IMG/VR virus record: IMGVR_UViG_2718217789_000011
Length of the DNA stretch: 48,264 bases
Source: a virus
Taxonomy: Duplodnaviria > Heunggongvirae > Uroviricota > Caudoviricetes
Reading direction: 5' to 3' (one strand)
In this document: in pieces, positions 42,001 to 45,000 of the stretch
Numbering within the stretch: the first letter of the stretch is position 1
Layout of the letters: every line of letters starts with the position of its first letter
Made by a program: the position numbers

Positions 42001-45000
42001 GATCGTGACCCACCCTAACTACATAATCCTGTACAGAGTAGCTGCTTCAAGCATTGAGATTGTAAGCGTGACACATTCTCGGCGACAATTTCCCTTCTCT
42101 ATCTGAGTTGAACAATTTTCATACTCCCTCTTTCGAGGGATTTTTTTGCCCAAAACAACAATTAAAAACTGTTGACACAAAAACAGTTTTTTATTGTAGA
42201 TTACATACACCAACCACCCACCCCGCCCCACAGAACGCCGGGCAATACTTCGAGTTACCAAGCAGTGGTCAGGGGGTAAGTAGCCAGCCCGAGGCGTATG
42301 AACATGACGGCAGGGTTCAACTTTAATAACTATGCAGCAGGTTTTTGTTCCGCTACCCGGCGTTAAGGGGAAATGAGGTCAACATGGATACTATCGATCT
42401 TGGCAACAACGAATCTCTGGTGTACGGCGTGTTTCCCAACCAGGACGGTACATTCACCGCGATGACGTATACCAAAAGCAAAACGTTTAAAACCGAAAAT
42501 GGTGCCCGTCGCTGGCTGGAAAGAAACTCAGGTGAGTGATATGGATTTCGACACAATCATGGAAAAGGCTTACGAAGAATACTTCGAAGGCCTTGCCGAA
42601 GGCGAGGAAGCTCTCAGCTTCAGTGAGTTTAAACAGGCGCTTTCCAGTTCGGCAAAATCTAACGACTAACGGAGTTAAAGATGGAATTTAAAGATTTACT
42701 AAAAGAAATCCAGGAAATTGCAGCACATGCACTTCACCAACGTCTGAACGAAGTTGAATTAGAATCTGCAACGAAGAAATACATTGATAATATGGCTCGT
42801 AATGTGCGCGATGCGTTTACCGGATTGTACTCTGTTTCGGTAACAAACAACCAGAATACTGAAGAAACTGCAAAGCGGATTGCCTCGGTGATGGGTTTTC
42901 ATGTCGAGGAAAAGTATTCAAAAAAAGAATTCTGGAAAACTACAAAAAAATTGCAGAGCGAGAACTGTCATCTCCTGCGGCAATCGCTTCTTTCTATGAG
43001 GAAAGTTATTCAGATGACACAGGATTACCGGAACTGCTCTCATTACTTGAAAAATTCGGAATTATCATGAAAGGGACTGCGTCGGCGGATTTCACATACT
43101 CAATGATGGCTGCTGATGGAGAGCCTTTTCCTCCCGAACTTAAAATAACCCCCGGCAATCATCCGATGGTAACAATAAGAGCAATAGAGAATTACTGGTT
43201 TAATCCAGTTCAACAATAGTTGGTCTTTGCAATATTTTTAATGGGCCACTACGCCCTTAATCTCGGGCGGCGTTTAACTCTTTATTCAGTAAATCAGACT
43301 GATACTGATTTGGCTTTGTAATGATACTGTCAAGTTTTGATATATGAAATTCAACATGTTCTGGACAGTTAAAAATGTAATAACCGCCCTTCTCTAAAAA
43401 GCCAGAAAGAGCGTTACAGGCAGGGCATGGTTTGTTTGGCATTTTATCCTCCATTAAGGGCTGAATTAAAAATGGAGACCAACACGCTGCTACGTGTGGT
43501 CGTGCGCCGGACACAGATAAGAATCCGGCACTGACAGTTTACTGAAAGGATATATCCCTGAAAAGTCAGGGCATAACACGAAAGTGCACGGCGAAGTCCT
43601 TCTCCCTTAGAGCCGTCGTTAAATTTAATTCGACCGTGCGCTTCCGGTTGTGGCAATCCGCGAAATGGCGCGGCGGTAAGTATGGCGGGGTTATTCTTTC
43701 CCCGTTGAGGACACCGGGTTGTCAGGTTGACCATACGCTTAAGTGACAACCCCGCTGCAACGCCCTCTGTTATCAATATTCTGGTGACATTTGGCGGTAT
43801 CAGTTTTACTCCGTAACTGCTCTGCCGCCCTTTTTTAAAAGTGAATTTTGTGATGCGGTGAATGCGGCTCAGCGCACGCGGAACAGTTAAATCGGTAAAG
43901 CGGTCATTTGCTGAGTAACGAGAATGCTCTGTATCCGGCGTTAATTGTTAACTGGTTAACGTCACCTGGAGGCACCAGGCACCGCATCACAAAATTCATT
44001 GTTGAGGACGCGATAATGGAAAAGTTATCATGTAATGCCAGCACGTCTGAACTTCGTTTCGAAATTGGCGTTATCACTGGAGACAAAACATTTATTGAAG
44101 ACGCCATTAAGCAGAGAAAACTCGAGCAGGACCTGTTAAATGAAGTATGCATTCCTTCAATGCTGGCTCGTCTGGACCTGCTGCAAAAAGGATATAAACA
44201 ATGAATACAACATTTGCACTCGTTCTGACAGTTTATCTTGTTTCCGGCGAATCTCTTGAGCTGGTGACTGGCTTATACGGTTCAATGAAAGAATGCATGG
44301 CTGCAGCAGCAGAACAAAAAATTCCCGGTAACTGTTATCCGGTAGATAAAACTACTCACACTAATAATAACGAAATACCGGCAGGACTTTAAAACAGCAC
44401 CGTAATTAATATCCGGTTTCATTTTTATATGCCAGCAATGGCAGGGATTTGTTCACCCTTAAATCTGTAATGAGGTTAAAACACAATGAGTAAAATCTTT
44501 ATTTGCGCTGCTATTCCTGACGAACAGGCCATAAAAGAAGATAGCGCTGTTGCGGTGGCCACTGCCATTGAAGCCGGTGATGAGCGTCGCGCACGCGCAA
44601 AATTTCACTGGCAATTTCTGGAGCAATTCCCGGCAGCTCAGGACTGCGCTTATAAATTTATTGTCTGCGAGGATAAACCCGGCATACCCCGCCCTGCCCT
44701 CGATTCCTGGGATACCGAATATATGCAGGAAAACCGCTGGGATGAGGAGTCAGCTTCCTTTGTACCGGTCGAACCAGAATCCGATCCGATGAACGTCAAT
44801 TTTGACAAGCTGTCCCCTGAAGTACAGAACGCAGTCCTGGTTAAATTCGACACATGCGAAAACATCACCGTTGATATGGTGATTAGCGCACAGGAATTAC
44901 TACAGGAAGACATGGCAACATTCGGCGGACATATCGTTGAAGCGTTGATGAAAATGCCAGAAGTTAACGCCATGTATCCTGAACTTAAACTGCATGCCAT

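Follow-up and report, generated by a model that had tools for sequence, protein, structure and literature searches.

The DNA analyzed here is a viral record of 48,264 nucleotides (nt), IMG/VR IMGVR_UViG_2718217789_000011, which we call the window and which is a lambdoid prophage of Escherichia coli O157:H7. Our subject is an inverted repeat that lies in it between the gene encoding DicF, a small RNA (sRNA), and dicB, the gene for a cell-division inhibitor. The surrounding segment, 43450-44500, is 100% identical to E. coli O157:H7 chromosomes, where it sits inside a lambdoid prophage with its integrase adjoining yccA. The order of features (leader, DicF terminator hairpin, inverted repeat, dicB, ydfD) is that of the dicBF operon in the K-12 prophage Qin (Table 1), and multiple dicBF copies have already been described in O157:H7 prophages (PMC5069750).

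An earlier note on this DNA had recognized a DicF-like sRNA followed by DicB-like and YdfD-like genes, and these assignments were borne out. Rfam model RF00039 matched DicF (43779-43830, + strand) over its full length, positions 1-52 of 52, at 76.9 bits against a gathering score of 48, and the sequence aligned to K-12 dicF. Its 3' end is formed by the terminator hairpin GGCGGUAUCAG...CUGCUCUGCCGCC followed by U6. A simple promoter and terminator scan gave no more matches than shuffled sequences and missed the DicF terminator, because the hairpin loop is longer than 8 nt. Both downstream products scored above the curated Pfam cut-offs, and the ydfD start codon overlaps the dicB stop codon (ATGA).

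Table 1. Coordinates of the features discussed, as positions in the window.
Feature	Position	Strand	Details
Leader hairpin	43579-43647	+	~14 interrupted base pairs in the predicted fold; same arms in K-12
Element U	43647-43769	+	Conserved structured leader directly upstream of DicF; nearly identical in K-12
DicF sRNA	43778-43836	+	53-nt body ending in the terminator hairpin, then the U6 tract at 43831-43836
P1 5' strand	43830-43860	+	Core left arm 43841-43860; extension spans the terminator U-tract
STnc100-like domain, interior	43861-43979	+	P2 43864-43879; P4 43937-43963; P5 43965-43979
STnc100-like domain, variable region	~43891-43932	+	
Pseudoknot strands	43884-43890 and 43948-43954	+	CAGUUAA, after P2, and UUAACUG, in the P4 loop; mutually complementary
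P1 3' strand	43980-44010	+	Core right arm 43980-43999; extension pairs with the U-tract and spans the dicB Shine-Dalgarno sequence
dicB Shine-Dalgarno sequence	44004-44008	+	GAGGA, read from sequence
dicB	44016-44204	+	62-amino-acid cell-division inhibitor; Pfam DicB PF05358, 131.8 bits (cut-off 27); RefSeq annotation dicB
ydfD homologue	44201-44392	+	DUF1482, Pfam PF07358, 69.2 bits (cut-off 25); RefSeq annotation
Full STnc100 sRNA copy	29627-29817	-	Rfam RF02076, 138 bits; own terminator; late-region paralogue of the dicF-dicB domain

An inverted repeat that acts as RNA

The core arms of the repeat, 43841-43860 and 43980-43999, match at 19 of 20 positions around a 119-nt spacer, just as the earlier note had reported, and a repeat search extended them to 24 nt at 92% (43837-43860 / 43980-44003). 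This match is far beyond chance: when 43400-44450 was shuffled 40 times with dinucleotides preserved, inverted repeats of 20 nt matched at 13-16 of 20 positions at best. The right arm had been placed 16 nt before the dicB ribosome-binding site; that distance actually separates it from the start codon at 44016, and the Shine-Dalgarno sequence begins 4 nt after the arm. In RNA the sole core mismatch of the DNA, G43841/T43999, becomes a G·U pair. The minimum-energy RNA fold of 43770-44030 (-95.3 kcal/mol, z = -5.5) is dominated by the repeat helix, here called P1, whose 20 core pairs are contiguous, including the one G·U, and have pair probabilities of 0.95-1.00. With its outward extension, P1 pairs 29 of 31 positions when G·U is allowed. 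The long stem envisaged for the precursor RNA is thus supported by pair probabilities of at least 0.95 and by changes in other phages that are either wobble-tolerant or compensatory.

K-12 Qin carries the same repeat in the same place, with two differences that turn a C-G and a G-C pair into U·G and G·U wobbles. The repeat is therefore no peculiarity of the present prophage but a regular component of dicBF-type operons. The earlier note had named equal presence in Qin without function as grounds for refutation; the presence is confirmed, but the repeat is not functionless there. The two loci are 84-85% identical overall, with the arms at the same position and the leader, DicF and the repeat ends nearly identical. 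The present copy differs in its spacer center, which is 9 nt longer, in being Watson-Crick at the two P1 pairs that are G·U in K-12, in three DicF substitutions (T1A, G12A and G38A), and in having two open reading frames (ORFs) in place of ydfC upstream.

A wider comparison used 24 distinct dicB/kil-type variants of the element collected from phage and genome contigs. All 24 keep 21-31 pairs in the closing helix, with compensatory changes that include GAUG/CAUC to GGUG/CACC, U-A to C-G and U-A to G-C; the long stem of one Klebsiella locus is unrelated in the sequence of its outer half. Departures from Watson-Crick pairing were of the G·U type in 73 instances and of the A·C type in 11 (35 and 8, respectively, in the 20-base-pair (bp) core). 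This excess of G·U over A·C indicates that RNA from the + strand, rather than the DNA, has been under selection, and we take the inverted repeat to be a + strand RNA element. Between Qin, Rac-type, Stx and P7 phages the flanks diverge, but the interior hardly changes in sequence.

Two further readings of the repeat were rejected. A terminator or attenuator is ruled out by the absence of a U-tract after the right arm, and an extension of the dicB coding sequence (an in-frame 98-amino-acid ORF from 43908) by kil-type loci, where the frame is not kept because of a 1-nt indel and another downstream gene. Separately, the coding sequences of dicB and ydfD contain a 16-nt inverted repeat of 88% match (44147-44162 / 44283-44298, arms 120 nt apart); no counterpart of it was detected in K-12 Qin, and for this reason we treat it as probably due to chance.

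The domain closed by P1 and its relatives

The RNA domain that P1 closes has five helices and a pseudoknot. It is related to the prophage sRNAs STnc100 and PasD, which are abundant, Hfq-associated and verified on Northern blots (PMC5331693, PMC13192938). A permissive scan with Rfam gave a match to STnc100 (RF02076) at 43844-43993, model positions 21-154 of 206, with 33.6 bits (E 2.3e-5), a score that does not reach the gathering score of 47. On seven counterparts in the same genomic position the Rfam model scored 32.5-47.8 bits, one of them reaching threshold. The window also holds a full STnc100 copy on the opposite strand, and the 22-nt P5 hairpin motif that the two share occurs only at these two STnc100-type places in the window, with 0.01 occurrences expected by chance. 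When used as a query, the motif retrieved more than 110 instances across Enterobacterales. The Q antiterminator gene and tRNA-Ile/Arg/Arg (29897-30143, -) are found just upstream of the full copy, and a SASA esterase gene downstream of it.

Covariation supports the fold. RNAalifold on 112 aligned sequences recovered helices P1-P5, with compensatory changes at 13 of 23 pairs; 94.6% of the cells were paired, against 80.6% in shuffles, and the covariation score was 0.404, against 0.148 in shuffles (none of 500 reached it) and 0.04-0.09 with slid partners. A covariance model trained on 52 sequences of STnc100 type, drawn only from other genera, aligned all of P1-P5 in the dicF-dicB element at 72.8 bits, a score that is partly circular, and to that extent a point against our reading, because the training set was picked with a motif derived in part from this locus. 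The same model found only two matches in the window and gave 69-79 bits for the Qin, Rac, P7 and Stx-phage counterparts. The Rfam STnc100 scores on the counterparts are independent of that training-set motif.

The strand after P2 and the P4 loop are complementary (Table 1), and this complementarity is kept with many different sequences across 113 distinct members. The pairing was tested sequence by sequence, since the loops are out of register in the model-fitted alignment, where a column-by-column test failed. Three controls were used: the weighted helix length was 6.1, compared with 4.58±0.10 for permuted partners, 4.34±0.09 for shuffled loops and 4.35 in the parallel orientation. Because complementarity is kept beyond all of these controls, we conclude that the domain is pseudoknotted. 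Rfam's consensus structure line does not show this pseudoknot, and the PasD/STnc100 preprint does not draw it in its RNAalifold figure either.

The dicF-dicB element shares the following with STnc100 and PasD, in one and the same order and spacing throughout: a GGUGAAU motif; a P2 hairpin with a CUnnGCG loop; P3; a P4 loop pseudoknotted to the strand after P2; a P5 hairpin of the form CCNGG-AGGCA-CCNGG; and a closing helix with GGUG/CACC. It differs from these sRNAs in lying inside an mRNA directly before a start codon, in its subfamily-specific P2 and P4 sequences, and in a P1 of 20-30 bp rather than 6-12 bp. Nor does it have a 3' terminator of its own: STnc100 model positions 155-206 are unmatched, and the dicB Shine-Dalgarno sequence follows after 4 nt. 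The STnc100 and PasD literature that we searched makes no mention of DicF, dicB or kil, and the link between the stem and an STnc100-like domain appears to be unreported in it.

The element recurs as part of a cassette. Among 68 dicB/kil-type copies with complete flanks, 61 directly follow a terminator hairpin of the form UGGCGG...CCGCCC-U5, whose loop differs between loci. In all but one of the 68, the next start codon stands at a fixed offset: 32 nt for dicB, 37 nt for kil and 40-41 nt for ash/rha, where the downstream product is a 220-amino-acid Ash/Rha protein. P2 and P4 are distinctive in sequence in the dicB-type subfamily, which is also the one with the 20-30 bp P1 (6-12 bp elsewhere). 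P7-type copies are without an upstream terminator and have a P1 of only 9 bp. The published OxyS/kilR study contains nothing on the kilR leader.

The domain is also found in other surroundings. In Pantoea, Citrobacter and other genomes and plasmids, 4-5 copies form tandem arrays, some copies only 5 nt apart (contigs L034 3106-4495, L045 940-1998, L043, L064, L072 and L075 of our collection). These arrays are sometimes interspersed with, or abut, tRNA genes, and 14 of 118 copies have a tRNA gene on the same strand within 300 nt. In phage P7 (contig L006, 1304-1388) a tRNA-like gene lies directly upstream of the domain; it scored 46.6 bits as tRNA-Sec (gathering score 47), was called tRNA-Ser by ARAGORN, and is unannotated in the record. 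It is conceivable, though we think it decidedly unlikely, that one fold, widespread among enterobacterial phages and hitherto classed just as an sRNA (STnc100/PasD), would serve early operons before dicB or kil, with RNase III cutting a longer P1, late operons with a terminator, and tandem arrays interspersed with tRNA genes, its conserved junctions and loops binding a ligand or protein as a riboswitch-like element, decoy or processing scaffold.

Probable RNase III processing and possible unmasking of dicB

As quoted in later papers (PMC5069750, PMC9438474), Faubladier et al. (1990) described for K-12 DicF a 5' end made by RNase E and two 3' ends, one produced by termination, giving a 53-nt RNA, and one by RNase III processing of the full-length operon mRNA, giving a 72-nt RNA. 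The dicA-dicF-dicB intergenic region figures in a review's list of RNase III substrates (PMC2777011), and RNA sequencing recorded 0 reads in the wild type and 26 in an rnc deletion at MG1655 position 1649470 ("intergenic dicF-dicB"), a site flagged as known (PMC5371410 Table S1). With dicF at MG1655 1649382-1649434, the K-12 left arm spans 1649443-1649462 and the 72-nt end, at 1649453, falls in mid-arm; a shift of 5 nt in that end would still leave it within the arm. In the window the same end, 19 nt past the 53-nt end, maps by coordinate arithmetic to ~43849-43854, again within the left arm.

This position of the 72-nt end, together with the RNase III-dependent site in the spacer, indicates that the repeat is very probably the already-known RNase III processing helix. 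The published cut would fall in P1 by arithmetic from the K-12 figures, its RNase III dependence being known from the K-12 literature, and for the spacer segment at P1 we saw no other partner that could make double-stranded RNA. A processing role for the stem, as the earlier note had suggested, therefore fits both the published cleavage in the K-12 dicF-dicB spacer and the 72-nt DicF. Another RNase III site, upstream of DicF, is reported to give the 5' end of a 190-nt precursor (PMC10448788); that paper makes no mention of a 72-nt DicF species or of read-through. The precursor 5' end would be expected near 43641, 137 nt (190-53) upstream of the DicF 5' end, and the 3' arm of the predicted leader hairpin at 43579-43647 is a likely candidate for this upstream site.

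The explanation we favor, and consider probable, is that the + strand helix P1 closes a domain related to STnc100 and PasD and is the RNase III site of dicBF-type operons. Most transcripts would stop at the DicF terminator, and the RNAs that read through would fold P1, with its 20 bp, or ~29 pairs with the extension. RNase III would then make a staggered cut in both arms, yielding DicF of ~72 nt, cutting out the ~140-nt domain and leaving ~23 nt of leader on the dicB-ydfD mRNA. In the last and weakest step of this scheme, for which the lambda N leader is the model, the cut would also free the dicB ribosome-binding site.

Unmasking is suggested by the base of the helix, where extended P1 is predicted to pair the DicF terminator U-tract with UUGAGGA, so that cleavage may expose the ribosome-binding site. 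The computed probability that the Shine-Dalgarno sequence is unpaired was 0.12-0.14 in the uncleaved RNA and 0.80 in the modeled cleavage product; the corresponding K-12 values were 0.28 and 0.80. The proposal that the stem gates dicB translation is plausible on these numbers, all of which come from in silico folding. That the helix base masks the Shine-Dalgarno sequence and that cleavage makes dicB translatable is the consequence of the cut that we prefer, but only tentatively and at somewhat less than even odds. Such a masking step appears to be unreported in the literature searched.

Several observations weigh against the scheme, some of them aimed at the cut and others at its proposed consequence. 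The placement of the cut in P1 depends on the lengths of 72 and 53 nt as quoted by later authors. The 1649470 site lies 8 nt inside the spacer and not in an arm, and the RNase III site list of Gordon et al. is coarse, candidate sites having been required to lie at least 400 bp apart. An RNA sequencing table for strain EDL933 gives very low reads for some DicF copies, which are not assigned to this locus. Masking relies on weak U·G and U-A pairs in a thermodynamic prediction; in the predicted fold of the Rac kil leader the helix is kept and masking of the Shine-Dalgarno sequence does not hold; and in the modeled cleaved RNA the AUG itself lies in a local hairpin. Cleavage could equally destabilize the dicB mRNA by leaving a monophosphorylated, unstructured 5' end, an alternative that is just as simple.

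Overlapping with the favored explanation is the possibility that the excised ~140-nt STnc100-like domain is a third product of the operon, stable and acting in trans or binding a protein, with control of dicB secondary. The nearly constant interior between diverging flanks (in Qin, Rac-type, Stx and P7 phages), the five helices and pseudoknot, all of which covary, the abundance of the Hfq-associated relatives STnc100 and PasD (PMC5331693, PMC13192938), and the occurrence of the domain alone, in tandem arrays and beside tRNA genes would all suit such a product. The K-12 spacer reads, 0 in the wild type and 26 in the rnc deletion, look instead as if the excised piece is degraded; the domain also lacks the terminator (model positions 155-206) that its sRNA relatives carry, and no RNA of this size from dicBF operons is reported in the literature searched. 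On balance we think this rather unlikely, although it is the strongest of the competitors. A purely structural gate on dicB translation or decay, which would work without RNase III and hold dicB silent in read-through transcripts until ribosomes, helicases or temperature melt the helix, is improbable. It would account for the predicted pairing of the Shine-Dalgarno sequence in the full-length RNA and would suit a toxic, tightly controlled gene such as dicB (PMC10448788). However, perfect helices of at least 20 bp are canonical targets of RNase III, cleavage of the spacer that depends on this enzyme is documented for K-12, a helix of 20-30 bp is too stable for unaided opening, and the kil-type leader keeps the helix without clear masking.

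Explanations at the level of DNA, or of no function at all, fare worse. A 20-bp inverted repeat around ~120 bp has the size of a miniature inverted-repeat transposable element (MITE), the module is mosaic and stands beside different genes (dicB, kil, ash/rha and terB), and covarying arms are what terminal inverted repeats would also show; we therefore considered whether the arms are the ends of a MITE inserted between dicF and dicB, or a protein-binding palindrome. A target-site duplication is absent, the flanks AAAA and TGTT being different, and the element keeps a fixed place with respect to both the terminator and the start codon that follows. The 73 to 11 bias of G·U over A·C departures on the + strand is an asymmetry that DNA pairing does not tolerate, and the interior has covarying helices and a pseudoknot of its own. 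A DNA-level origin is accordingly very improbable. For a chance palindrome without function there is nothing to say beyond the fact that short inverted repeats are common; shuffles reached at most 16 of 20, and conservation with compensatory changes extends across genera, leaving this reading with a negligible probability.

DicF, the surrounding operon and implications

The earlier note had given two G-to-A substitutions in DicF. This is right for the 52-nt core, but alignment with the annotated K-12 gene b1574 gave a third difference, T1A, in addition to G12A and G38A. That the two G-to-A changes alter target pairing was unsupported for ftsZ. The hairpin-loop segment GUUUUACUCCG of DicF is predicted to pair with CGGAGAGAAAC, at the ribosome-binding site in the K-12 ftsZ leader, with a duplex energy of -36.6 kcal/mol for the present variant and -38.5 for K-12 DicF. 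G38A sits in an unpaired interior loop of the predicted duplex, leaving the core duplex untouched. Among the phage copies sampled, position 12 is polymorphic (G, A or T), and A is the base given by the Rfam consensus.

Rac/kil-type loci carry, in the DicF position, a terminator hairpin that keeps the stem base UGGCGG...CCGCCC-U5 and has other loops, for example GUUUUUUCUUGAAGUUCGG; in Rfam the Rac version is a sub-threshold DicF. These loops (e.g., contig L004 1452-1506, and many viral contigs) are without the anti-ftsZ ACUCC motif, and the hairpins may be DicF paralogues with other targets.

The leader directly upstream of DicF, which we call element U, is probably a separate structured RNA module. 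It also occurs in the leader of the phage P1 ban operon (contig L007, 1553-1654), where it is annotated "dicF-like region", lies ~100 nt downstream of the Pban promoter and is followed by a different terminator hairpin. At 91% identity it is present in Stx2c and cdtI phages without DicF. The compensatory changes that accompany its presence in P1 are CGGGG/CCCCG versus CUGGG/CCCAG and UGUCA/UGACA versus UGCCA/UGGCA.

Further upstream, the place of ydfC is taken by a 129-amino-acid ORF (42681-43070, +) and an oppositely oriented 61-amino-acid ORF (43257-43442, -); a Pfam match was found for neither. The latter encodes a Cys- and His-containing product (CPAC...CPEH), and an early-left transcript feeding DicF would have to cross this antisense gene. 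Elsewhere in the same prophage, a RelE/ParE-family toxin gene lies at 41819-42106 (+), and a sok antitoxin RNA at 34868-35042 (-, 105.6 bits) implies a hok/sok locus.

In rRNA operon stalks and at the intercistronic sites of T7 early mRNA, RNase III cuts both strands of a local or long-range helix of about two turns. The proposed dicF-dicB cut resembles these in that cleavage of a helix on both strands separates functional RNAs of one precursor; it differs in that the helix encloses ~120 nt and the downstream product is an mRNA that encodes a small toxic protein. In the leader of lambda N, RNase III removes a structure near the ribosome-binding site, and translation depends on host RNase III. 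The dicF-dicB helix likewise belongs to a phage early-left transcript and puts structure close to the first gene's ribosome-binding site. The two leaders are not similar in sequence, and the effect on dicB translation is a prediction.

The reading of the repeat as a processing stem is right but already known from K-12, as are the O157 dicBF copies from earlier descriptions. What is new is modest: the stem is P1 of an STnc100-like pseudoknotted domain, set in a conserved cassette of terminator sRNA, domain and ribosome-binding site. A 35-year-old processing site thereby gains a concrete structure, and its spacer is a conserved domain rather than a passive linker, one related to the abundant and functionally uncharacterized prophage sRNAs STnc100 and PasD. 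For lambdoid phages, the cassette comprises a terminator sRNA with a variable loop, a domain with a long RNase III stem, and the ribosome-binding site of an early, toxic gene, which is dicB, kil or ash/rha. Should the cut indeed uncover the dicB ribosome-binding site, synthesis of the division inhibitor would be coupled to the activity of host RNase III.

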